A model generated the notes under the pieces. That model did not search any database. It saw only the letters and a program-made list of their open reading frames with translations, and was not told the DNA's origin. Of a DNA stretch of 64,000 nucleotides, positions 8,004-63,936 are shown in pieces; the stretch's first letter is position 1; every line of letters starts with the position of its first letter. The DNA is taken from positions 95,464 through 159,463 of the forward strand of contig SCQK01000014.1 in NCBI GenBank assembly GCA_004321885.1, in the 5' to 3' direction. The position numbers were made by a program, and so were the translations under genes. This stretch comes from Patescibacteria group bacterium. GTDB taxonomy: Bacteria; Patescibacteriota; Patescibacteriia; Magasanikbacterales; GWA2-37-8.

Positions 8004-8052
8004 TGTCATTCCAGCCCGCCTTTAGTCCCAGCGAAAGCTGGGATGGAATCCA
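8004..8052. repeat. Family-B repeat variant (TGTCATTCC-hairpin-GGAATCCA)
   Basis: TGTCATTCCAGCCCGCCTTTAGTCCCAGCGAAAGCTGGGATGGAATCCA. Confidence 0.7.
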
Positions 8053-8060
8053 TTCGCTGG

Positions 8061-9215
8061 TCATTTTTTCTCCTGCCCCAGCCAGTAGGCCGCCAGCAAA
8101 GTGGCGATGGGCACGGATAGGGCCACGCCGATACTGCCCACCAGGGTGCGCACGATTTCCGTGGCAATGGTTTCGTTGTTTATGGCTTGGGCCCAAGAGA
8201 GCGGCGGGTCGCGTTGAATATGAAACAGCAGTAAAACAGGCAAAGACGCTCCGGCGTAGGTTAAAAACAAAGTATTGACCAAGGCGCCCAAATGCGCGTT
8301 GCCGATTTTATAGGCTGATGTAAAAACTTGCGCGGGCGACAGCGACGGATTCGCGTTTTTTATTTCCCGCACTGCTTCAATTTGCCCCACGATTACATCA
8401 TCAAGCACGCCGATGGCGCCGATAAGTATGCCGGATAGTAACAGGCCCTGAAAATTTATGGCGCCCTTGTTCGCGCCGATTAAAAACATGGCCTCTTCCT
8501 GCCCCAGGCCGGAAAGCCGCGCCAGTTTCGTGAAAAGCCAAGACAGAAAAAACGTGGCCGCCAGCGAGAGCAAAACACTGACAATGGCCAGGTGGGATTT
8601 TTTATTCCAGCCTTCGTTTAAGTAAATAATGATGGCCAGCACCGCGAAGGCGCCAAACAAGGCGATGGGCAGGGGACTGACGCCTTTCATGAGCAAGGGC
8701 ACAATTATTTTGATAATTAAAAAAAAGCTGATGGCCAAGCCGACCAGGGCCAGCAGGCCTTTTTTCTTGCCCACCAAAAGAACCACGAGCGCGAAAATGA
8801 GAGTCAGCCACAACAGGGGAGTCTGGCGCACGTAATCTACTGCGTAAAAATTTTCCGTGCCATCGCTGCGCTTGACATAATTTACCAAAACCTTGTCGTT
8901 GACTTTATAAACTCCGGACGAGAGCACATCCAAATCGGAAATGCCGCTCACATTAAATTCTTTGTCTTCCCATTTTCCCTCCAGCCCGCGCAGAAGCAGA
9001 TTTTGTTGGACGGCTTGGCGGCCGTCCGGGCGCGTCGTTTCTTTTTGTTCCAGTATTTTTATTACTTTGGCTTTGAAAACCGCTTCTGTTTCATTGGCCG
9101 CATACGTACCGGCTGGCAGAAACAAAATAAAAAACAGCGTCAAAATAAAAATAATGAATCGTTTACGTCCCTCCCTTAGGGGGAGGATAGAAGGGGTATG
9201 CATGATGTTATACAA
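8061..9215 (-). CDS. YibE/F-family polytopic membrane protein
   Basis: N-terminal signal/TM, extracytoplasmic region, then 6-7 TM helices with the YibE/F-like layout (…SGLGQEEAMFLIGANKGAINFQG…). Confidence 0.55.
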   Translation of the reverse strand: MYNIMHTPSILPLREGRKRFIIFILTLFFILFLPAGTYAANETEAVFKAKVIKILEQKETTRPDGRQAVQQNLLLRGLEGKWEDKEFNVSGISDLDVLSSGVYKVNDKVLVNYVKRSDGTENFYAVDYVRQTPLLWLTLIFALVVLLVGKKKGLLALVGLAISFFLIIKIIVPLLMKGVSPLPIALFGAFAVLAIIIYLNEGWNKKSHLAIVSVLLSLAATFFLSWLFTKLARLSGLGQEEAMFLIGANKGAINFQGLLLSGILIGAIGVLDDVIVGQIEAVREIKNANPSLSPAQVFTSAYKIGNAHLGALVNTLFLTYAGASLPVLLLFHIQRDPPLSWAQAINNETIATEIVRTLVGSIGVALSVPIATLLAAYWLGQEKK

Positions 9216-9218
9216 CAG

Positions 9219-9252
9219 TCATTCCCCCGACTTAGTCGGGGGAATCCAGTCG
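9219..9252. repeat. Family-B repeat
   Basis: GTCATTCCCCCGACTTAGTCGGGGGAATCCAGTC. Confidence 0.85.
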
Positions 9253-9907: not shown

Positions 9908-9987
9908 CCTCTCCCCTTTACAAGGGGGAGGCTTGTCACCACACCAAAAATTTTGGTGTGGTGACAGAGAGGGGGTAATCCTCTCAC
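9908..9987. repeat. Family-D palindromic repeat (CACACCAAAAATTTTGGTGTG core flanked by CCCCT/AGGGG arms)
   Basis: Near-identical core to 26953..27025; generates an N-terminal ORF extension of the LRR gene. Confidence 0.85.
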
Positions 9988-10232: not shown

Positions 10233-10240
10233 AAATTATT

Positions 10241-10275
10241 GTCATTCCGGTCGCCTGCGGCGGCCGGAATCCAGT
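10241..10275. repeat. Family-B repeat
   Basis: GTCATTCCGGTCGCCTGCGGCGGCCGGAATCCAGT. Confidence 0.85.
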
Positions 10276-10321: not shown

Positions 10322-10349
10322 TTGACATTTTCGCTATTTTTTTCTATAA
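10322..10349 (+). promoter_or_regulatory. Consensus sigma70-type promoter (TTGACA-17-TATAAT) driving GIY-YIG ORF / tRNA-Asn
   Basis: TTGACAttttcgctatttttttcTATAAT seen directly. Confidence 0.65.
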
Positions 10350-10353
10350 TAGT

Positions 10354-10383
10354 TGTCATTCCGGACTTGATCCGGAATCCAGC
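10354..10383. repeat. Family-B repeat just downstream of promoter 10322
   Basis: TGTCATTCCGGACTTGATCCGGAATCCAGC. Confidence 0.85.
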
Positions 10384-10444
10384 TCCTTTGAAAATAAATT
10401 CCGGGGTAGCGCTCCGCCAGCCGGCGGAGGTAGCGCAGTTGGCT

Positions 10445-10693
10445 GTGTATACTGTTTACGCTATTTACAATCAAAAAAACGATAAAATTTATATTGGACA
10501 AACAAAAGACATGGCCGAACGATTAAGGTTGCATAATGAAAAAATCCTTCTTGGTTATACTTATAGATTTGATGGAAATTGGAAATTAATTTATAGTGTA
10601 CAGATCGAGAATAGACAAAAAGCTTTACAAAGAGAGAGACAACTTAAAAGTTTTAGAGGCAGAGAATTTATAAAACAATTTATTCCGGGGTAG
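10445..10693 (+). CDS. GIY-YIG nuclease-domain protein (stand-alone, YhbQ/UPF0213-like)
   Basis: VYTVYAIYNQKNDKIYIGQTKDMAERLRLHN is a canonical GIY-YIG motif with Arg and downstream Glu (IENRQKA). GTG start at 10445 with GGAGG 14 nt upstream; the ORF track begins at TTG 10322 inside the promoter. Its stop codon lies inside tRNA-Asn. Confidence 0.65.
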   Translation: MYTVYAIYNQKNDKIYIGQTKDMAERLRLHNEKILLGYTYRFDGNWKLIYSVQIENRQKALQRERQLKSFRGREFIKQFIPG

Positions 10694-10755
10694 CGCAGCG
10701 GTAGCGCAGAGGACTGTTAATCCTTTGGTCGTGGGTTCGAATCCCACCCCCGGAG
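10684..10755 (+). tRNA. tRNA-Asn (anticodon GTT)
   Basis: Cloverleaf by hand: acceptor TCCGGGG/CCCCGGA, D-arm GCGC-AGCGGTA-GCGC, anticodon loop CTGTTAA, T-arm GTGGG-TTCGAAT-CCCAC, discriminator G; no encoded CCA. Confidence 0.85.
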
Positions 10756-18270: not shown

Positions 18271-19110
18271 ATGAAAAAAATCATTGTCTCTTTGCTCGTG
18301 CTGGGAATCGCGGTTTTGGGTTTTGTGTTGTTCAGGGAATTTAGAAAAAATTTCGGGCGCGTGGCCGGGCCCGCGGGACAGACCGGCGAAACCGCCGGGC
18401 CCGAGGCAGGGGCCTACAAAATTTCCGACGCCGCGCTTAAAGAAGACAGCGCGCGTTATGTTATCATCGCCAAGTATCCGCGCCTCTTGGGCTTGTCGCC
18501 TGCGGCCGACAAAAATTTCAATGACGCGATGTTGGCCTTAATCAATCAGAATGTCAGCGATTTTAAGAAAAATGTGGCCGAAACGCCCGACACGCAGGTA
18601 AACAGCAGTCTGGAAACCAACTTTGACATCGTGGAAGAAAATGAAAATTTTGTCAGCATTCTTTTGATTGTTGATTCGTACGTGGCAGGCGCGGCTCATC
18701 CCGCGCGCCGTCTGGCCAGCTTTAATTTTGATTTGGAAAAAGGCGCGGTGTTTGGGCTCAAAGATGTTTTCAAATCCGGCGCGCCATATTTGGAACGGCT
18801 GTCGCAATTCGCGCGCGCCGAGCTTTTAGAGTCCAACAAACAGGAGCCGTTTACCGACGAAGCCACCATCAACGCCGGCACCGAGCCGAAAGAGGAAAAC
18901 TTTCAGGTGATAAATTTTTCCGCGGCTGGCATTGCGATAGTTTTTAATGAATATCAGGTGGCGGCCTACGCGGCCGGGCCGCAAATGGTGGAGATTGATT
19001 ACGAAAGCGTGAAGGATATTTTGAACGAAGAAGGCCCGCTGGCGCTGTTTTTAGCCAAGACCGAGGAGGAAGCGGAGCCGTCGCTGGATTCAGGGTCAAG
19101 CCCGGAATGA
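18271..19110 (+). CDS. Membrane-anchored DUF4163/DUF3298-like (RsiV-like) domain protein
   Basis: N-terminal TM; YQVAAYAAGP and surrounding pattern typical of DUF3298. C-terminal residues SGSSPE plus stop TGA are encoded by a partial family-B repeat. Confidence 0.5.
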   Translation: MKKIIVSLLVLGIAVLGFVLFREFRKNFGRVAGPAGQTGETAGPEAGAYKISDAALKEDSARYVIIAKYPRLLGLSPAADKNFNDAMLALINQNVSDFKKNVAETPDTQVNSSLETNFDIVEENENFVSILLIVDSYVAGAAHPARRLASFNFDLEKGAVFGLKDVFKSGAPYLERLSQFARAELLESNKQEPFTDEATINAGTEPKEENFQVINFSAAGIAIVFNEYQVAAYAAGPQMVEIDYESVKDILNEEGPLALFLAKTEEEAEPSLDSGSSPE

Positions 19111-19139
19111 CAATAAAAATATTTTTTAATAAATAAACT

Positions 19140-19170
19140 GGATTTTCCCGACTTAGTCGGGGGAATGACA
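19140..19170. repeat. Family-B repeat 5 nt upstream of M4 peptidase start
   Basis: GGATTTTCCCGACTTAGTCGGGGGAATGACA; partial copy at 19096..19115 supplies the stop of the upstream gene. Confidence 0.85.
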
Positions 19171-19175
19171 AGTGT

Positions 19176-23055: not shown

Positions 23056-23084
23056 TGGATTCCGGCTCGGGGGCCGGAATGACA
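23056..23084. repeat. Family-B repeat upstream of PAP2 gene
   Basis: TGGATTCCGGCTCGGGGGCCGGAATGACA. Confidence 0.85.
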
Positions 23085-26742: not shown

Positions 26743-27245
26743 TGTATTTTTCTCTTGTTCCCTCCCGCGTATTCAATTCTGACGGTTATTATTTTCGGCC
26801 CTTGGCCGATATTTTTCAAAAGCTCTTTTATTTTCTCCGGCCACTCAATCGCGCAAATCGTATCCGGCCTGCCCAAATAATCCAGCGCGCCGATTTCCAC
26901 AAGTTCGTGCTCATTTTTTAGCCGGTAGGTATCTATATGGACGAATTTTTGTGTCCCCCTGCCCCCACACCAAAATTTTTGGTGTGGGGGCCTGCCCGAG
27001 GGGGACTTTGAGGGGGGTGGGAGCAAGTACACATTCATCAACGCGAACGTCGGACTGGTAATTTTTTCTTTGACGCCCAAGCCGGCGGCAATGCCTTTCA
27101 CCAATGCAGTTTTGCCCGCGCCCAGTTCGCCGTAAAGCAATAAAATATCGCCGCCGCGCAATTTTCGCGCCAAAGCCGCGCCAAACGCAAATGTTTCTTT
27201 TTCGTTTTTCGTGATAATTTTTTGATTGTTTTGACGGGTTGACAT
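26691..27245 (-). CDS. tsaE: tRNA threonylcarbamoyladenosine biosynthesis protein TsaE with in-frame repeat insertion
   Basis: P-loop GELGAGKT, SPTFALMN. Segment LLPPPSKSPSGRPPHQKFWCGGRGTQ is encoded by family-D palindromic repeat 26953..27025. Start at MSTRQ (27245); the ORF track extends to 27320. Confidence 0.8.
   Translation of the reverse strand: MSTRQNNQKIITKNEKETFAFGAALARKLRGGDILLLYGELGAGKTALVKGIAAGLGVKEKITSPTFALMNVYLLPPPSKSPSGRPPHQKFWCGGRGTQKFVHIDTYRLKNEHELVEIGALDYLGRPDTICAIEWPEKIKELLKNIGQGPKIITVRIEYAGGNKRKIHILPPLSSLPKQVRDRL
26953..27025. repeat. Family-D palindromic repeat inside tsaE
   Basis: GTCCCCCTGCCCCCACACCAAAATTTTTGGTGTGGGGGCCTGCCCGAGGGGGAC... Confidence 0.85.
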
Positions 27246-27599: not shown

Positions 27600-27632
27600 A
27601 AACTACTCCGCCCGGGCGGAGTAGTTTTTTGC
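27600..27632 (+). terminator. Rho-independent terminator after tRNA-Pro
   Basis: ACTACTCCGCCCGGGCGGAGTAGT + TTTTTT. Confidence 0.8.
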
Positions 27633-27634
27633 TA

Positions 27635-27671
27635 CTGGATTCCGGTCGCCTGCGACGACCGGAATGACAAT
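27635..27671. repeat. Family-B repeat
   Basis: CTGGATTCCGGTCGCCTGCGACGACCGGAATGACAA. Confidence 0.85.
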
Positions 27672-31398: not shown

Positions 31399-31427
31399 TG
31401 TCATTCCCGCGAAAGCGGGAATCCAGC
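31399..31427. repeat. Family-B repeat upstream of SPFH gene
   Basis: TGTCATTCCCGCGAAAGCGGGAATCCAGC. Confidence 0.85.
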
Positions 31428-32004: not shown

Positions 32005-32035
32005 TGTCATTCTGGCTCGGGAGCCAGAATCCATC
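32005..32035. repeat. Family-B repeat at 3' end of SPFH gene
   Basis: TGTCATTCTGGCTCGGGAGCCAGAATCCATC. Confidence 0.85.
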
Positions 32036-32184
32036 ATTCAATTCAAACCGGCAGTATCACTGCCGGTTTTTATTATTGACTTTTTTATGTTAGTGGTATA
32101 TTATAATGGGTCTTTTCGGATTCACGTCCGAGGGATAGTTTGAAAACCAGCCGCTTGCAAGCGGCACAACGATGGAGGGAAATC

Positions 32185-33002: not shown

Positions 33003-33055
33003 TTGACATTCCTTTCGCGCGTATGATATTATCACTCGTGTAGTGAGAGTGATAA
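33003..33055 (+). promoter_or_regulatory. sigma70-type promoter (TTGACA-18-TATTAT) overlapping a CIRCE-like HrcA operator
   Basis: TTATCACTC-gtgtagtga-GAGTGATAA is a perfect 9-N9-9 inverted repeat; it differs from canonical CIRCE (TTAGCACTC-N9-GAGTGCTAA) by one G to T change per arm. Immediately upstream of hrcA. Confidence 0.8.
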
Positions 33056-33060
33056 CGGAC

Positions 33061-33095
33061 GCTGGATTCCCCCGTACTTAGTCGGGGGAATGACA
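33061..33095. repeat. Family-B repeat in hrcA 5' UTR
   Basis: GCTGGATTCCCCCGTACTTAGTCGGGGGAATGACA. Confidence 0.85.
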
Positions 33096-38157: not shown

Positions 38158-38252
38158 CTGGCTCCATAGTTGCGAAGCACTATGGAGCTCAAATGTTGGT
38201 CAGCAATTCGGCTCCACAGCCCCGACTGGGTCGGGGACTATGGAGCCAGCCA
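38158..38252. repeat. Family-C REP-like hairpins (2 units) after dnaJ
   Basis: GGCTCCATAGTTGCGAAGCACTATGGAGC and GGCTCCACAGCCCCGACTGGGTCGGGGACTATGGAGCC. Confidence 0.85.
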
Positions 38253-38273
38253 TAGGATAACACTGGATTCCCC

Positions 38274-38295
38274 CGACTAAGTCGGGGGAATGACA
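38274..38295. repeat. Family-B repeat 2 nt upstream of ECF sigma start
   Basis: TGGATTCCCCCGACTAAGTCGGGGGAATGACA. Confidence 0.85.
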
Positions 38296-38844: not shown

Positions 38845-39540
38845 ATGAATCTCAAAGTTAGGTACAATTTATGGAAAGAACAGCGCCGGATGTCGCCGAA
38901 TTTTAAGTTTAAGCGCGCGCTTTTGGCGCGTGTGCTGGATTCTCGCCTGCGCGGGAATGACAGCGAGGACTGGCGCGGCAAACACCCTATTAGATTTTTT
39001 GCCTATTTCACCCACTTGCGCTGGGGCGTGGTTATGGCCAGTGTTTTGTTGTTGGCTTTGCTGGCCACCGGCGCATACGCCTACAACAGCGACGAAGTTA
39101 CCGAGGGTACTGTTTTGTATCCGGTAAAACAAAAGCTGGAAGAAGTGGAGGAACTGACCAAGCGCACGCCCGAAGCCAAGGCGGATTTTTATCTGAAACA
39201 GATTAAGCGGCGCGAAGCCGAGGAGGCGGCGCTGGAGCGCCGGCGCGCCAGGATTGAAAAAGCTAAAAATCGGCTGGACATGCTGGAAAAAAACATAGAA
39301 GCGTCCGAGGAAAAAGCCGAGCGCGTGCAGACCCAGCTTGAAGAAGTAAATAAAATATTGAGCGGCAAAAACAGCGCGCAGAACAAAGAATTGCGCCAGC
39401 GCGTGCAGGCGATTTTGGAAGCCAAAAAAATAAAAAGAGAGCGCGAATTGGACAAAAAAGTGGAAATGATACGGCGGAAAGCGGAAATGATTGACAAGTT
39501 ATACGCCAGCTTGGAAGAGGAAATGGAAAAAGAAGAATAA
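38845..39540 (+). CDS. Putative anti-sigma factor: single-TM protein with long charged coiled coil
   Basis: Directly follows the ECF sigma; TM MASVLLLALLATGAYAY; rest is K/E/R-rich helical. Assignment by context. Confidence 0.4.
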   Translation: MNLKVRYNLWKEQRRMSPNFKFKRALLARVLDSRLRGNDSEDWRGKHPIRFFAYFTHLRWGVVMASVLLLALLATGAYAYNSDEVTEGTVLYPVKQKLEEVEELTKRTPEAKADFYLKQIKRREAEEAALERRRARIEKAKNRLDMLEKNIEASEEKAERVQTQLEEVNKILSGKNSAQNKELRQRVQAILEAKKIKRERELDKKVEMIRRKAEMIDKLYASLEEEMEKEE

Positions 39541-48764: not shown

Positions 48765-48872
48765 CTGGCTCCACAGTCCCCGACAAAGTCGGGGCTGTGG
48801 AGCCGAAATGCTGGCCAACATTATGGCTCCACAGCCTCGGTCGCCTGCGGCGACCTCGGACTATGGAGCCAG
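48765..48872. repeat. REP-like hairpin array (family C), upstream flank of RAYT
   Basis: GGCTCCACAGTCCCCGACAAAGTCGGGGCTGTGGAGCC and GGCTCCACAGCC-TCGGTCGCCTGCGGCGACC-TCGGACTATGGAGCC; nested palindromes. Confidence 0.8.
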
Positions 48873-48913: not shown

Positions 48914-49459
48914 ATGCCGACGCCGCGGATAAATGAAGCGTATGAAAATTTGACGCATTTTTTGACGATAACGGTAGTAGAATGGATTGATATTTTTACA
49001 AAGAGAGAATATTTTGAGGCGATAGCAGAGAGTTTAAAATTTTGCAGAGAAAATAAAGGATTGTTGCTCTACGAATATGTGATAATGACCAATCATTTGC
49101 ATTTAATCGTAAGGGCCAAAGAAGGTTTCAAATTATCTCAAATAATCAGTGATTTTAAAAAATACACCGCAAGAGAAATCTGTAAATTATTGGCAACAGA
49201 TAATCGCAGGTATATTTTAAATCTGCTCAAAAATAGTTTTTCCAAAAAAGAGGGTTATCAAAATCAACTTTGGCAAAGGGAAAATTACGCCGAGCCGATG
49301 ACTTCCGGTAAATTTTTGGATGAAAAAATAACCTATATTTACAATAATCCAGTAAAAAAGGGTTTTGTGGCAAAGTCGGAGGACTGGCTTTATTCATCGG
49401 CAAGAAATAGGATATTGGGTGACCATTCAATATTGCGAGTGGATGATTTGGAAGGTTAG
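48914..49459 (+). CDS. REP-associated tyrosine transposase (RAYT; IS200/Y1 HUH-family)
   Basis: HUH motif in YVIMTNHLHLIVRA; catalytic Tyr candidate in FKKYTAREI; size about 180 aa; flanked on both sides by REP-like hairpin arrays. Start could be 48863 (inside the REP). Confidence 0.65.
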   Translation: MPTPRINEAYENLTHFLTITVVEWIDIFTKREYFEAIAESLKFCRENKGLLLYEYVIMTNHLHLIVRAKEGFKLSQIISDFKKYTAREICKLLATDNRRYILNLLKNSFSKKEGYQNQLWQRENYAEPMTSGKFLDEKITYIYNNPVKKGFVAKSEDWLYSSARNRILGDHSILRVDDLEG

Positions 49460-49690
49460 CTCGCTGGCTGCACGCTGGCTCCATAGTTTTTCGCGAAGCG
49501 AAAACTGTGGAGCCAGAATGCCAGCACTATGGCTCCACAGCCCCGACTTTGTCGGGGACTATGGAGCCAGCGACAACGCCAAGATGCCGGACAGCACTAT
49601 GGCTCCACAGCCCCGACTTTGTCGGGGACTATGGAGCCAGCGATAACAAAATGCCAGCACTGCGGCAGCGATTGCTATGGAGCCAGCGAC
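49460..49690. repeat. REP-like hairpin array (family C, 5-6 units), downstream flank of RAYT
   Basis: Repeated GGCTCCA(C/T)AGCCCCGACTTTGTCGGGGACTATGGAGCC units, with variant inner loops (e.g. TTTTTCGCGAAGCGAAAA). Confidence 0.85.
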
Positions 49691-55511: not shown

Positions 55512-56731
55512 AAATAGCTCACGTTATTTCAACGTTTCCGCCGCGAATCGGCGGAATGGGAAAAGTGTGTTTTGAAGAGGCGAAGGAATTGGCCAAGCGC
55601 GGGCACGATGTGACCGTGTTTACTTTGAGGTATGCGGATACCCCCTCCTCTGTCCCCCCCCTAAGAGGGGGAGGAATAAATGTGGTGCGAATGTGGCCGG
55701 TGGTGAGGGCAGGCGACGCGGGTTGGGCGCCGCAATTATTTTGGAAGTTGAAAAATTTTGACATCGTTCATTTACACTATCCGTTTTACGGCGGGGCGCA
55801 TTGCGTGTTGTTGGCCCGGCTTTTTCGGAAGCAAAAATATGTGCTCACGTATCACATGGACGCTCGGCCCGCAGGATTGTTAAAAAAATTTTTTCAAAAA
55901 ATTTACGATTTTATTTTCGCGAAAGCGATTTTGAGGAACGCGGAGAAAATGATTGTGATGGATAGGAAGTATTTTGAGGCCAGCACAAATACGACCGTTG
56001 GTTCCATAGTTCCCGACTCAGTCCGGACTGTGGAACCCAATGCCGGCACTTTGGCTCCACAGCCCCGACGTAAAGTCGGGGACTATGGAGCCAGCGTGAT
56101 AGAAATCGCGCCGGGCGTGGATGCGGAGATCTACCAGCCGTCAGGTGGCTGGCCTCAAGGGGGCCACTTCGGGGCCGGGAAAAAAACAATTTTGTTCGCG
56201 GCCAATCCCATGCCGTTGAAGCGGTTGGATTTGTTACTGAAGGCGTTGCGGTTGATGAACGAAGATGTTTCGCTTTTAGTGGTGGGAGGCGGTTACGCGC
56301 TTGAGGATTACAAAAAAATGGCCGAGGAGCTGGGGATAAAAAACAAAGTGGTTTTCGCCGGCCGGTGCGACAGCGAACAAAAAATGGCCGAGTATTATAA
56401 CTCCGCTTCTTGTCTGGCCATACCATCGCAATCCGAATCGTTTTCTTTGTCAGCGATTGAAGCAATGGCTTGCGGTTGCCCGGTGGTGGCGCGTGATATG
56501 CCGGCTATGGCCGGACGCGTGACACACGGAGTTGATGGTTGGCTGGTAAACAGCGATAAGCCCGAGGATTGGGCGCGCGTTCTTCGCGAAGCTGTGGGAC
56601 TTACCGCGGAAGAGCGCGAGCGCATAGGCGCGGCGGGCAGAAAAAAAGTCGTGGAAAATTATGATTGGAATAGACATGTGGATGAATTGGAGAAAGTGTA
56701 CAGTATGGATTCCGGCTCAAGGCCGGAATGA
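55508..56731 (+). CDS. GT4-family glycosyltransferase with two in-frame repeat insertions
   Basis: ESFSLSAIEAMACGCPVVA is the GT4 E-x7-E region. Family-A repeat (55640..55677) encodes DTPSSVPPLRGGG; family-C REP pair (56000..56096) encodes ...SIVPDSVRTVEPNAGTLAPQPRRKVGDYGAS... Confidence 0.8.
   Translation: MKIAHVISTFPPRIGGMGKVCFEEAKELAKRGHDVTVFTLRYADTPSSVPPLRGGGINVVRMWPVVRAGDAGWAPQLFWKLKNFDIVHLHYPFYGGAHCVLLARLFRKQKYVLTYHMDARPAGLLKKFFQKIYDFIFAKAILRNAEKMIVMDRKYFEASTNTTVGSIVPDSVRTVEPNAGTLAPQPRRKVGDYGASVIEIAPGVDAEIYQPSGGWPQGGHFGAGKKTILFAANPMPLKRLDLLLKALRLMNEDVSLLVVGGGYALEDYKKMAEELGIKNKVVFAGRCDSEQKMAEYYNSASCLAIPSQSESFSLSAIEAMACGCPVVARDMPAMAGRVTHGVDGWLVNSDKPEDWARVLREAVGLTAEERERIGAAGRKKVVENYDWNRHVDELEKVYSMDSGSRPE
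55640..55677. repeat. Family-A hairpin inserted in-frame in GT4 gene
   Basis: CCCCCTCCTCTGTCCCCCCCTAAGAGGGGGAGG. Confidence 0.8.
56000..56096. repeat. Family-C REP-like hairpins (2 units) inserted in-frame in GT4 gene
   Basis: GGTTCCATAGTTCCCGACTCAGTCCGGACTGTGGAACC and GGCTCCACAGCCCCGACGTAAAGTCGGGGACTATGGAGCC. Confidence 0.85.
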
Positions 56732-56733
56732 CA
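56706..56733. repeat. Family-B repeat providing the stop (TGA) of GT4 and the start (ATG) of MTase
   Basis: TGGATTCCGGCTCAAGGCCGGAATGACA; ATGA within GGAATGACA. Confidence 0.85.
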
Positions 56734-57679: not shown

Positions 57680-57711
57680 TGGATTCCCCCGACTAAGTCG
57701 GGGGAATGACA
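57680..57711. repeat. Family-B repeat
   Basis: TGGATTCCCCCGACTAAGTCGGGGGAATGACA. Confidence 0.85.
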
Positions 57712-57717
57712 AGTGAT

Positions 57718-58278
57718 ATGAAAGTAGTTCACATAATTCCATCGGCCTTCCGCTACTTTGACGACATCCGCGGCAAGGCCTTTGAATTAGTTGAAGAACT
57801 CTCTGATTTAGGCGTGGAAACGGAGGCGTTTACAATTCAGTACGGCGATACGACTAGAGCCATCAAAAGTGAGGTAAGCGGAAAAGCCCCGTCGCGTAAA
57901 TTCATGGGCAACGCGGATTTGGCGCGCGCCCTGGCCGGGCTGGGGGTCGGCGATATTGTCCACGTCCATTGCCCGCTTTTTGGCGCGGCCGGGCCGGTTC
58001 TGCGGCTAAAAAAGAACAAGCCGCAAATTCCTTTGCTGGCCACTTTTTACCGTCCCGCGCGCCTGCCTGATTTTTTTTCTTTGCTCATCAAATTTTATAA
58101 TGGCTATTATTTGCCCAAAATTTTTGGAGCGGCCGACGCGATTTTCTCTTATGCGCCAGCTGTCCACTTGACTCGCTGGGCCAATAAGGTACAATTAATA
58201 GACATAGCGCGGCCGGATTCGCCGCGGCCGATTGATTTTTATAGTGATTTTTTTAATAATCCGTATGCCAGAGAATAA
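57718..58278 (+). pseudogene. Orphan GT4-type N-terminal (GT-B Rossmann) domain only; likely truncated glycosyltransferase remnant
   Basis: MKVVHIIPSAFRYF... VHVHCPLFGAAGPVLRLKK resembles the Glyco_trans_4-like N-domain, but no C-terminal E-x7-E domain follows; the next ORF overlaps its end. Confidence 0.35.
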
Positions 58279-61826: not shown

Positions 61827-63701
61827 TTATCTTTTCAATACAGCCAAATACGTCTCGGCCGGTATGTCAATTTTTCCGTGCGAAAGCAGGCGTCTCTTAC
61901 CTTTTTTCTGCTTTTGCAAAAGTTTCATCTTGCGCGTGTAATCGCCGCCGCTCATTTTGGCCAGCACGTCTTTGCGTAAAGCCGACAGCCGTTCGGCCGC
62001 GATAATTTTTCCGCCCACCGCCGCCTGGATTTTAAGCACGAATTGTTGGCGGGGAAGCGAATCACGGAGTGACTCCACGACTTTCTTCCCGGCCTTGTAG
62101 GCCTCGTCGCGCCAGACCAGCGTGGCCAGGGCCTCCACCGGTTCTTCGGCCACCAGCACGTCCAGTTTTACCACATCGGTTGGTTCGTAATCAATGTATT
62201 CGTAGTTCATGGAAGCGTAACCCGACGTGACGGTTTTAAGTTTATCATAAAAGTCGGTAATAAGCGAGGCCAGGGGAATTTGGTAATGCAACATGGCGCG
62301 CTGGTCGGCTCCGGCGCTTAAATATTCGGTGTTGACATAGCGCCCTTTGCGTTCGGACACCAGTCCCATGATATTGCCTACGAAGTCCTTGGGCGTGATA
62401 ATATCCAAGTCCATCCATGGTTCGGTGATGGATTTTATTTCCGCCGGCGAGGGCATTTCCTGGGGGCCGCGGATTAAAATATTTTGCCCGTTGGTTTTTT
62501 CGGCTTTGTACACCACGCTCGGCACGGTGATGATAATTTCCAAACCGTGTTCGCGCTTGAGTCGCTCCTGAAAAATATCCAGATGCAAGAGACCCAAGAA
62601 ACCGCAGCGAAAACCGAATCCCAGCGCCTGCGAATGCTCGGGTTCGTAGGTCAAAGAAGAATCGCTTAAGCGCAGTTTGTCTATGGCGTCGCGCAGTTCG
62701 CCGTAGGCATCGCCTTCTTTGGGAAAAATGCCGGCGAATACCATGGGCTTTACCTCCTTGTATCCCGGCAACGGTGTCTCGCTCATTGGGCATTGCTCAT
62801 TGGGATTTGGGATTTTCGCGATGGTGTCGCCCACGCGACAGTCGCGCACTTCTTTGAGTCCCGTGACCACGTAGCCGATCTCACCGTTCAAGAGTTTTTC
62901 CGCCGCTTTGAATTTGGGCGTGTAGTATCCCAATTCCAATACCTCGGCCGGCGTTTTGGTGGTCATCAAAAATATTTTGTCGCCTTTTTTCAATTCGCCG
63001 TCGGACACGCGTACTGAAGCCACCACGCCTTTGTATTCGTTGAACTCCGAATCAAAAATCAGGGAGCGCGTCGGTTTGCCGATGTTGTCCTTCGGCGCCG
63101 GCACGCGCTCTATCACGGCGGTTAAGATTTCTTCCACGCCCTGGCCGGTTTTGGCCGAAGCCAAAATTATTTCCTCTTCTTTACAGCCCAACAGGTGGAT
63201 TATTTCTTCTTTGGTTTTTTGCACGTTGGCGATGGGCATGTCAATCTTGTTGATGACCGGAATGATGGTCAGATTTTGCTCAATCGCCAGATACAAGTTG
63301 CCTATGGTTTGCGCCTGCACGCCTTGGGTGGCGTCCACGAGCAAAATAGCGCCTTCCACGGCGGCCAAAGAACGCGAAACCTCGTAGTTAAAATCCACAT
63401 GCCCGGGGGTGTCTATCAGGTTCAGGATGTATTCACTGTCATTGCGAGCGCCCGCAGGGCGCGTGGCAATCTCATTCTTGTTTGGGATTGCTTCGCTCTG
63501 CTCGCAATGACACTTGTACGACATGCGCACGGGCGTGAGTTTGATGGTGATGCCGCGTTCGCGTTCCAGGTCCATGCTGTCAAGCAGTTGCGCTTTCATG
63601 TCACGCTTGTTCACCGTGCCCGTGAATTCTAAAAATCTATCCGCCAATGTGGATTTTCCATGGTCAACATGACTTATGATGCAAAAATTTCTGATGTTCA
63701 T
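61827..63701 (-). CDS. lepA: Elongation factor 4 (LepA) with in-frame palindromic-repeat insertion in the G domain
   Basis: NFCIISHVDHGKSTL, DTPGHVDFNYEV, C-terminal LepA domain. About 27 aa (CHCEQSEAIPNKNEIATRPAGARNDSE) inserted between ...RMSYK and YILNLIDTPGH, encoded by two opposed family-B repeats 63427..63501. Start at MNIRNF (63701). Confidence 0.9.
   Translation of the reverse strand: MNIRNFCIISHVDHGKSTLADRFLEFTGTVNKRDMKAQLLDSMDLERERGITIKLTPVRMSYKCHCEQSEAIPNKNEIATRPAGARNDSEYILNLIDTPGHVDFNYEVSRSLAAVEGAILLVDATQGVQAQTIGNLYLAIEQNLTIIPVINKIDMPIANVQKTKEEIIHLLGCKEEEIILASAKTGQGVEEILTAVIERVPAPKDNIGKPTRSLIFDSEFNEYKGVVASVRVSDGELKKGDKIFLMTTKTPAEVLELGYYTPKFKAAEKLLNGEIGYVVTGLKEVRDCRVGDTIAKIPNPNEQCPMSETPLPGYKEVKPMVFAGIFPKEGDAYGELRDAIDKLRLSDSSLTYEPEHSQALGFGFRCGFLGLLHLDIFQERLKREHGLEIIITVPSVVYKAEKTNGQNILIRGPQEMPSPAEIKSITEPWMDLDIITPKDFVGNIMGLVSERKGRYVNTEYLSAGADQRAMLHYQIPLASLITDFYDKLKTVTSGYASMNYEYIDYEPTDVVKLDVLVAEEPVEALATLVWRDEAYKAGKKVVESLRDSLPRQQFVLKIQAAVGGKIIAAERLSALRKDVLAKMSGGDYTRKMKLLQKQKKGKRRLLSHGKIDIPAETYLAVLKR
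63427..63501. repeat. Two opposed family-B-like repeats inside lepA
   Basis: TGTCATTGCGAGCGCCCGCAGGGCGCGTGGCAATC and GGGATTGCTTCGCTCTGCTCGCAATGACA. Confidence 0.8.
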
Positions 63702-63936
63702 ACCCAAAATTCTATCACAGAGCATTACAATATTCAATGGCTGGCAAAAACAAAAACAGCCTTTGAAAAAGCTGCTTTTGTAATAGTGCGAACCTCCCTG
63801 TTCCTCCAAATCTTGCCCGGCGGCTTCGCACAGCGCGCGCCGGGATGAATGTGCGATTGATTACGCTGGGAGCGTGGAGGTGGTGTGTACCCCGTATACT
63901 GTACACATATTCTCGTTTCGCCTATCATAAAGGGAT

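Follow-up and report, generated by a model that had tools for sequence, protein, structure and literature searches.

Why does a short hairpin repeat recur at the edges of genes in a Patescibacteria genome? The question arises from a single stretch of 64,000 nucleotides (here called the window) that belongs to a genome of the Patescibacteria, or candidate phyla radiation (CPR), related to Magasanikbacteria. The window carries dispersed copies of a unit that we refer to as the family-B repeat, one of which ends just before the start codon of an M4 peptidase gene. A first-pass annotation had proposed that this unit was selected for, or exapted as, a portable 5' untranslated region (5' UTR) and ribosome-binding-site module, fixed at a precise distance from start codons. 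Our analysis points instead to an element that acts at the DNA level. Family B is probably a set of DNA hairpin repeats of the kind described as NTS and Ssn-related motif (SRM), accompanied in the same window by a GIY-YIG partner protein of the Ssn type. Publications already exist for both the repeats as a class (2013) and the partner nuclease (2025), and what is new here is the host lineage and a well-illustrated case.

Structure and copies of the family-B repeat

The family-B unit has the form (C)TGG-ATTCC…GGAAT-GACA, and a relaxed search for TGGATTC(C)-hairpin-GGAATGACA gave approximately 16 copies in the 64 kb. The units read in this form at positions 19085, 19139, 23056, 27636, 33063, 38264, 38936, 56706, 57680, and 63484 on the plus strand (n = 10, with 63484 being a degenerate sister-type copy) and at 8052, 9248, 10273, 10381, 31425, and 32033 on the minus strand (n = 6). 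The first-pass annotation was right to treat these as a genuine repeat family, as the window has 25 occurrences of GGAATGACA when one mismatch is allowed, versus 12.3 +/- 3.2 in shuffled sequences.

The outer bases of the unit are constant, while the inner stem varies between copies yet is still paired. Read on the opposite strand, the unit is TGTC-ATTCCCGC-GAAA-GCGGGAAT-CCA(G), in which an unpaired head (TGTC) precedes a stem opening with ATTCC, the top is variable, and CCA(G) forms the tail. The head is TGTC in 15 of the 16 copies and AGTC in one. All 16 stems open with ATT, most of them with ATTCC, and the tail is CCA in 15 copies and CCC in the degenerate sister-type copy. Stem length is 8 to 11 bp and loop length 3 to 8 nt, and the predicted folding energies of the hairpins lie between -5 and -20 kcal/mol. 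Most copies are single; the exceptions are two pairs in the same direction (10240/10354 and 19085/19139) and a sister-type pair in lepA, arranged tail to tail. A GGGGG run is present in 5/16 copies, all from one subfamily, and all five of these copies end just upstream of starts. The individual copies and the open reading frames (ORFs) next to them are as follows.

19139..19170, plus strand: copy with the sequence TGGATTTTCCCGACTTAGTCGGGGGAATGACA, ending 5 nt before the ATG (19176) of the M4 peptidase gene (M4 domain); hairpin of -14.2 kcal/mol
19085..19112, plus strand: copy overlapping the 3' end of the DUF3298 gene and encoding ...LDSGSSPE*, with the TGA stop (19108-19110) supplied by the repeat
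8004..8052, minus strand: long variant of 49 nt, in sense orientation, beginning 8 nt past the stop of the YibE/F gene
9217..9249, minus strand: copy in the 41-nt spacer between the LRR and YibE/F genes, 8 nt past the stop and 13 nt before the ATG at 9203; fits the SRM pattern
10240..10273, minus strand: copy ending 7 nt before the ATG (10232) of a SHOCT-domain gene
10354..10381, minus strand: second copy upstream of the GIY-YIG gene, approximately 60 nt before its start
23056..23084, plus strand: copy ending 9 nt before the ATG (23094) of the PAP2 gene, with its own ATG (23079) in frame with that gene
27636..27669, plus strand: copy between the terminator of tRNA-Pro and the stop (27674) of a convergent minus-strand ORF; relative to that ORF it lies head-first in the 3' region, 4 nt from the stop
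31399..31426, minus strand: copy in the 39-nt spacer between the YidC and Band7 genes, antisense to both; the plus strand reads TGTCATTCCCGCGAAAGCGGGAATCCAG
32005..32033, minus strand: copy lying head-first immediately past the Band7 stop (32004), with an intrinsic terminator beyond it at 32045-32069
33063..33095, plus strand: copy in the hrcA 5' UTR, in the interval between a CIRCE-like operator and the ATG (33108), ending 12 nt before the ATG
38264..38295, plus strand: copy ending 2 nt before the ATG (38298) of the extracytoplasmic function (ECF) sigma factor gene; fits the SRM pattern
38936..38962, plus strand: copy inside the DUF5667 anti-sigma ORF (38845-39540), in frame and encoding LDSRLRGND
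56706..56733, plus strand: copy spanning the GT4 stop and the first methyltransferase ATG (ATGA at 56728-56731) and encoding ...MDSGSRPE*
57680..57711, plus strand: copy identical to 38264-38295, ending 6 nt before the ATG at 57718
63437..63512: sister-type pair, tail to tail inside lepA (61827-63809, minus strand), consisting of TGTCATTGC...GCAATC at 63437-63471 and TGGGATTGC...GCAATGACA at 63483-63512

The start codons of hrcA and the sigma factor gene are backed by the N-terminal sequences of their products, and the N terminus of HrcA also matches that of a relative, L121. The suggestion that the unit carries a built-in start and stop was borne out in that its ATG and TGA serve as, or overlap, ORF ends in places. 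The TGA of the repeat closes two genes, DUF3298 and GT4. In the latter case, the GGAATGACA at 56725-56733 holds both the GT4 TGA (the ORF ends at 56731) and the methyltransferase ATG (56728). The ATG of the unit is in frame with the downstream gene in three or four cases; in three, it begins a mini-ORF whose end coincides with or adjoins the genuine start.

Several other identities were considered for the unit and rejected. The bases of the internal loop, compared by eye, do not fit a K-turn, C/D-box, or loop-E motif. An integron attC site was dismissed on account of the wrong R'/R'' boxes and the housekeeping neighbors. A miniature inverted-repeat transposable element does not fit either, with no consistent target-site duplication and no conserved flank past a C at -1 and a purine at +1. 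ATGACA was also considered as a -35 box, but the start codons are just 2 to 13 nt away and the scan gave one weak match. The Rfam scan of the window returned no family at the gathering threshold except two tRNAs, with only subthreshold chance matches around 38264, and nothing useful was retrieved when the literature was queried with the repeat DNA strings and the repeat-encoded peptides.

Correspondence with published hairpin repeats

A class of repetitive extragenic palindromes (REPs) tagged with CGTC was described by Di Nocera, De Gregorio, and Rocco (2013, BMC Genomics 14:522, PMC3733652). These elements have a CGTC head, often TGTC and also CCTC, an 8- to 9-bp stem opening with A-T pairs, a 4- to 5-nt loop, and a CCA tail. 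They are mostly intergenic near ORF ends, supply stop codons, lie in frame inside some genes, and have no dedicated transposase, and they were equated with Neisseria dRS3 and Rickettsia RPE-4/RPE-6 (PMC3733652). Chenal et al. (2025, Nat Commun 16:2388, PMC11893778) extended dRS3 to the 28-nt NTS, CGTCATTCCCGCGMAVGCGGGAATCYRG, and gave the degenerate SRM. The same paper characterized SsnA, a single-domain GIY-YIG protein of 94 aa that binds only the forward strand of the repeat as single-stranded DNA (ssDNA), and neither double-stranded DNA nor RNA, and that cuts a few nucleotides 5' of the repeat head. Among the NTS bases, the GTC before the palindrome is critical for cutting and the C after it for binding. 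The ssn genes across bacteria are typically flanked by repeats, and in N. meningitidis the NTS and SsnA lower the integration of transforming DNA (PMC11893778).

The window copies have these features. GTC on the 5' side of the palindrome and C on its 3' side are present in 16/16 copies. The NTS consensus is matched with one mismatch at 31399-31426 and with two mismatches at 38935-38962. Six window copies fit the SRM pattern, versus 0.3 in shuffled sequences, and the copies outside the pattern have the same head, lower stem, and tail, with tops that exceed its length limits. As judged from these sequence matches, family B is likely a local family of one widespread hairpin repeat, known variously as the CGTC/TGTC-tagged REP, dRS3/NTS, RPE-4/6, and SRM.

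The distribution of the unit was examined by scanning one genome per species with the pattern TGGATTCCSS-N(4-26)-SSGGAATGACA, which matched at least 120 genome loci. The matches listed come from Nitrospirota, Chloroflexota, Planctomycetota, Omnitrophota, Bacteroidota, Alpha-, Beta-, and Gammaproteobacteria (Pseudomonadota), Desulfobacterota, Cyanobacteria, several CPR classes, a metagenome-assembled genome of Nanoarchaeota, and others; binning errors in metagenome-assembled genomes could inflate this list of phyla but cannot account for its breadth as a whole. Among the matches listed, the commonest form is the 27-mer TGGATTCCCGCYTKCGCGGGAATGACA, and a stem of at least 8 contiguous bp is formed in 141 of 148, where three positions were left free and chance pairing would be approximately 6%. 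A metagenome scan for the GGGGG subfamily found it on 15 short contigs, often tail to tail with a different repeat type. On the groundwater contigs L125, L127, L129, L130, and L134-L137, this subfamily usually stands tail to tail with TGTCATCCCCGCGAAGGCGGGGATCCA, 20 to 35 nt apart, forming heterodimers as described for REPs.

A candidate GIY-YIG partner of the repeats

Close to two of the copies, the window encodes a small GIY-YIG protein.

10439..10693, plus strand: candidate ssn gene, encoding a single-domain GIY-YIG protein of approximately 84 aa, with the start at TTG 10439 or GTG 10445

The product of 10439-10693 matches the Pfam family GIY-YIG (PF01541) with an E value of 2e-15 and retains the GIY, YIG, H, and RE positions. 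The gene is hidden in a longer ORF (10322-10693), the first third of which is translated repeat. Two repeat copies lie 60 to 200 nt upstream of the gene in forward orientation relative to it, the first of them being 10240..10273 as read on the plus strand. A profile made from the window protein finds small GIY-YIG ORFs that abut the same repeats at four unrelated loci, with profile E values of approximately 1e-34 and identities of 23 to 32%. The four loci belong to a Methylotenera (L018), a member of the Omnitrophota (L072), a gammaproteobacterium (L102), and a metagenome contig in which repeats stand on both sides of the ORF (L133). By homology and position, the 10439-10693 product is likely the nuclease partner of the family-B repeats. 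ORFs of 80 aa or longer that lie no more than 2 kb from any of 148 copies were clustered, and no resulting family reached more than 7 of the 120 loci listed. This clustering missed ssn because a genome has one ssn gene but hundreds of repeats.

A direct repeat (10391-10446 and 10672-10718) encloses the GIY-YIG gene and corresponds to the 5' part of tRNA-Asn, namely, the acceptor and D arm with a few bases upstream. The stop of the GIY-YIG ORF overlaps the start of the intact tRNA-Asn (10684). This arrangement suggests that the gene entered the tRNA-Asn gene with a target duplication. Beside this tRNA is an island of low GC content (0.37 versus approximately 0.50) at approximately 10.7 to 16.7 kb, which encodes a helix-turn-helix protein, a D12 adenine methyltransferase, a SacI-like restriction enzyme, an extra ECF-type sigma factor, and an amidase, and which was probably acquired horizontally.

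Recent insertion of the repeats

Five relatives with 84 to 86% DnaK identity were compared with the window over the hrcA-grpE-dnaK-dnaJ-sigma region, where each shares 14 to 22 kb of synteny. No repeat copies were found in the syntenic regions of these five relatives. In the hrcA leader, the interval from the CIRCE-like operator to the ATG is a plain 17 nt in L121; in the window, it consists of 7 nt, the 33-nt repeat, and 12 nt. The hrcA promoter lies at 33003-33032. It is a strong sigma-70-type promoter (TTGACA-18-TATTAT) that overlaps the CIRCE-like inverted repeat TTATCACTC-N9-GAGTGATAA (33003-33056 in the window), and the arrangement is conserved in L121 (7888-7940).

Insertions were also found within coding sequences. 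The DUF5667 anti-sigma protein has an 8-aa in-frame insertion relative to its L121 homologue (…LDS-RLRGNDSE-DW… in the window versus …LDSA-W… in L121) that falls exactly at 38936-38962. L121 has TTGGACTCG where the window has CTGGATTCT, and therefore the first bases of the repeat resemble the preexisting sequence. Compared with Aquifex LepA (PDB 2ywe), LepA/EF4 has 21 additional residues, CHCEQSEAIPNKNEIATRPAGARND, inserted in frame in the GTPase domain, and the sister-type pair TGTCATTGC...GCAATCC encodes them. These comparisons show that the family-B repeats spread recently and in a lineage-specific manner, with insertions in spacers, gene ends, and coding loops.

Placement relative to gene boundaries

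The comparison of repeat-to-start distances with a random expectation, which the first-pass annotation had called for genome-wide, was carried out within the window. The null model assumed uniform intergenic placement in random orientation (20,000 simulations; 6.1 kb of intergenic DNA). Eight sense copies end no more than 13 nt upstream of a start, compared with an expected 0.89 and a simulated maximum of 6, and seven copies overlap a stop or are no more than 8 nt away from one, compared with an expected 1.04 and a simulated maximum of 6. This null is generous because promoters, operators, and terminators occupy much of the spacers. The copies are thus strongly and nonrandomly crowded at ORF boundaries relative to uniform intergenic placement. 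The individual distances in the first-pass annotation were all correct (5 nt to 19176, 2 nt to 38298, 12 nt to 33108, 9 nt to 23094, and an overlap at 56728-56731), as was its assignment of the DUF3298 stop to the repeat (TGA 19108-19110 within 19085-19112). However, the distance to the start is not the precise one that had been proposed but is spread over 2 to 13 nt.

The spacers were short before the repeats arrived, with a repeat-free median of 53 nt, and dnaJ and the sigma factor gene overlap or nearly touch in the relatives. Window copies are oriented in the sense direction in 12 cases versus 2 or 3 antisense, a modest bias (binomial p ~0.01). The bias was not seen elsewhere, as matches between same-direction genes in other phyla were 40 sense and 40 antisense among those listed. 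The replication strand was considered as the cause of the orientation and rejected, since genes on the minus strand also have sense copies and the GC skew is uniformly positive.

Three window copies (27636, 31399, and 32005) have the opposite orientation and lie 0 to 6 nt past stops, two of them followed by ordinary terminators. Head-first placement just past a stop is the usual site on other CPR and groundwater contigs. Across phyla, among the matches listed, the TGTC head points toward the nearest stop more often than the tail does (17/79 versus 4/53, p = 0.05) and likewise toward the nearest start (10/54 versus 3/62, p = 0.04); these polarity figures are weak and depend on crude ORF calls, those outside the window being our own, and the in-frame TGA of the unit may have biased the figure for starts.

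Alternative explanations

The alternative that survives best places the main role of the hairpin in RNA, where it would protect 3' ends or slow ribosomes after stops and stabilize the transcript or damp translation in 5' UTRs. All intergenic copies are in probably transcribed regions, the head-first copies past stops are suitably located, and such effects have been shown for classical REPs in the REP literature. Some diverged copies also keep their stem through G-U pairs on the transcribed strand only, as at 19139 (-14.2 versus -9.7 kcal/mol) and 38936 (-11.6 versus -7.9 kcal/mol). However, the copies at 10240 and 27636 fold better on the nontranscribed strand, copies inside coding regions cannot act as UTR hairpins, and the relatives do without the repeats. 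An RNA hairpin would also have no need of an outer sequence that is constant across phyla and coincides with the bases at which Ssn binds and cuts (PMC11893778). A main role in RNA is therefore unlikely, while an RNA function is possible as a compatible secondary effect.

A second alternative starts from the polarity and position of the copies and from the published Ssn cut site a few nucleotides past the head (PMC11893778). The repeats would be more than tolerated in this Shine-Dalgarno-poor genome. With the head toward the boundary, they would mark gene boundaries for ssDNA cutting, so that each gene of incoming or recombining DNA is trimmed separately, or the sense copies before starts would have become 5'-UTR control hairpins. 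We give this pair of proposals only a small chance of being correct.

A third possibility is that the repeats are spread by a different enzyme encoded in the window, a REP-associated IS200-like Y1 tyrosine transposase (RAYT; 48914-49459), rather than by the GIY-YIG protein. The gene product matches Pfam Y1_Tnp (E value of 1.8e-8), has HLH and YIYNNPV motifs, and has E. coli TnpA-REP (4er8) as its best solved match. The proposal that it moves family B gains something from the hairpin tops that family B shares with a second repeat family of the window, family A, and Di Nocera et al. left open whether RAYTs move CGTC repeats (PMC3733652). However, it is family A and not family B that flanks the RAYT gene on both sides, the nearest family-B copies are more than 7 kb away, and the GT[AG]G foot is absent from family B. 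The published surveys, moreover, found no RAYT association for this repeat class (PMC3733652) and an ssn association instead (PMC11893778). Mobilization of family B by the RAYT is very unlikely.

The family-A hairpins, GGCTCCACAG-top-CTRTGGAGCC, flank the RAYT gene at 48767-48870 and 49477-49638. The RAYT and family A form a classic REPtron arrangement and are a second, independent repeat-enzyme pair in the window. Families A and B have different conserved outer clamps but share variable tops, such as CCCCGAC-NNN-GTCGGGG and CGGTCGCCTGCG[A/G]CGACC (family A at 38160-38247, 48767-48870, 49477-49638, and 56000-56092). Two of the family-A copies lie inside the GT4 gene (56000-56092). Apart from these families, two perfect palindromes with the shared core CCACACCAAAA-N-TTTTGGTGTGG are found inside the LRR gene (9934-9966) and inside the TsaE gene (26961-26991).

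There remains the portable 5'-UTR and ribosome-binding-site module of the first-pass annotation, with the G-run as a Shine-Dalgarno sequence, ATGA as start and stop, and the hairpin as a terminator or stabilizer. The eight sense copies that end 2 to 13 nt before starts, far above random, are in its favor, as are the location of all five GGGGG copies just before starts, the ATGs of the unit that are in frame or open a mini-ORF up to the real start, and a GGGGAGGG-like run 12 to 18 nt upstream of a few repeat-free genes. Like a Shine-Dalgarno site, the unit places a G-rich stretch 9 to 19 nt before some starts. Unlike such a site, the G-run is not single stranded, since folding of the leader places it in a strong stem (-14 to -20 kcal/mol), and it is missing from 11/16 copies and from the orthologous genes of the five relatives, which manage without the repeat. 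The genome does not generally use Shine-Dalgarno sites, with GGAG or GAGG within 20 nt of the start in approximately 7 of the 56 window genes and most leaders being AU-rich. No rRNA genes are present in the 64-kb window. The suggested role as a terminator is contradicted by the lack of a T-run after the hairpin and by separate true terminators nearby (32045-32069 and 27600-27632); a scan for intrinsic terminators flagged only 27636-27669 among the copies, with a weak tail. Copies also occur antisense, just past stops, after a tRNA terminator, and in frame in the anti-sigma gene, with the sister type in frame in lepA, and on other CPR contigs the position after the stop predominates. Finally, the element matches a published DNA-level motif whose known partner does not bind RNA (PMC11893778). 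The ribosome-binding-site module is the least probable of the explanations considered here.

As an observation on the window in general, the sequence before most starts is AU-rich, and the few GGAGG-like runs are located unusually far upstream (12 to 18 nt).

Proposed mechanism and implications

We favor the reading of family B as NTS/SRM-like DNA hairpins with an Ssn-type partner, for which the published Ssn system suggests a mechanism. The TGTC...CCAG strand would fold into a hairpin when single stranded, and the GIY-YIG protein would bind the folded strand and nick it just 5' of the head. The repeats may spread as selfish or half-domesticated DNA elements and survive where they are least harmful, namely, in short spacers next to stops and starts, at gene ends, and in tolerant protein loops. 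At gene ends, the repeat's own TGA or ATG could then take over as the ORF boundary. Effects on mRNA through a 5'- or 3'-UTR hairpin would be a by-product of insertion and not the reason for the repeats. Such side effects might arise from the hairpins in the hrcA, sigma factor, M4 peptidase, and PAP2 leaders or after stops, and the mechanism does not require them.

Several points weigh against this reading. The candidate ssn gene is flanked on one side only, with no repeats downstream of it. Its product is divergent, at 23 to 32% identity to the other repeat-flanked GIY-YIG proteins, and does not have their C-terminal KKWNR..NPEW tail. The RAYT in the window is a second candidate mobilizer. Tolerance by itself does not readily account for the excess of sense copies before starts (8 versus 0.9) or the sense bias of 12 to 2 or 3. 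The window, in addition, covers only 64 kb of the genome.

The probable assignment to the Ssn type would place a CPR/Patescibacteria genome among the hosts of the Ssn nuclease and its repeats. In Neisseria, this system was shown to limit the uptake of transforming DNA. Because CPR bacteria are presumed to rely strongly on taking up DNA, an Ssn-type system in this group would be worth testing. The hairpins also reshape genes, having provided new stops, possibly new starts, an 8-aa insertion in an anti-sigma protein, and 21 extra residues in the LepA GTPase domain. In annotation, recognizing the repeat avoids false small ORFs and the over-reading of the unit as a regulatory signal.

Comparison with known systems

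Family B resembles the GTAG-type REPs and REPINs with their RAYTs in being composed of short dispersed hairpins with an unpaired tag, in presumably acting as ssDNA, and in having a partner gene among the repeats. In contrast to those elements, the tag of family B is TGTC and not GT[AG]G, and family B does not flank a RAYT.

The similarity to the CGTC-1 family and its relatives (PMC3733652) is closer in structure, as the window units have a TGTC head, an A-T-T stem start, a CCA tail, and mostly 3- to 5-nt loops. As in that class, the copies are mostly intergenic near ORF ends, supply stops, include in-frame copies, and have no adjacent transposase. However, the published CGTC-tagged REPs are mostly head-to-head dimers, while the window copies are mostly single. 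The published elements lie near upstream stops at a variable distance to starts, while half of the window copies are just upstream of starts. The 2013 survey reported five phyla, and many more are represented among the matches listed here.

The NTS/SRM system (PMC11893778) was described from hosts that are mainly Pseudomonadati, whereas the host here belongs to the CPR/Patescibacteria. In the window, the hairpin tops are more varied, and the candidate GIY-YIG partner is shorter than SsnA with a divergent C terminus. The two have in common the same head, stem, and tail, many dispersed copies, and a small single-domain GIY-YIG gene beside copies of the repeat.

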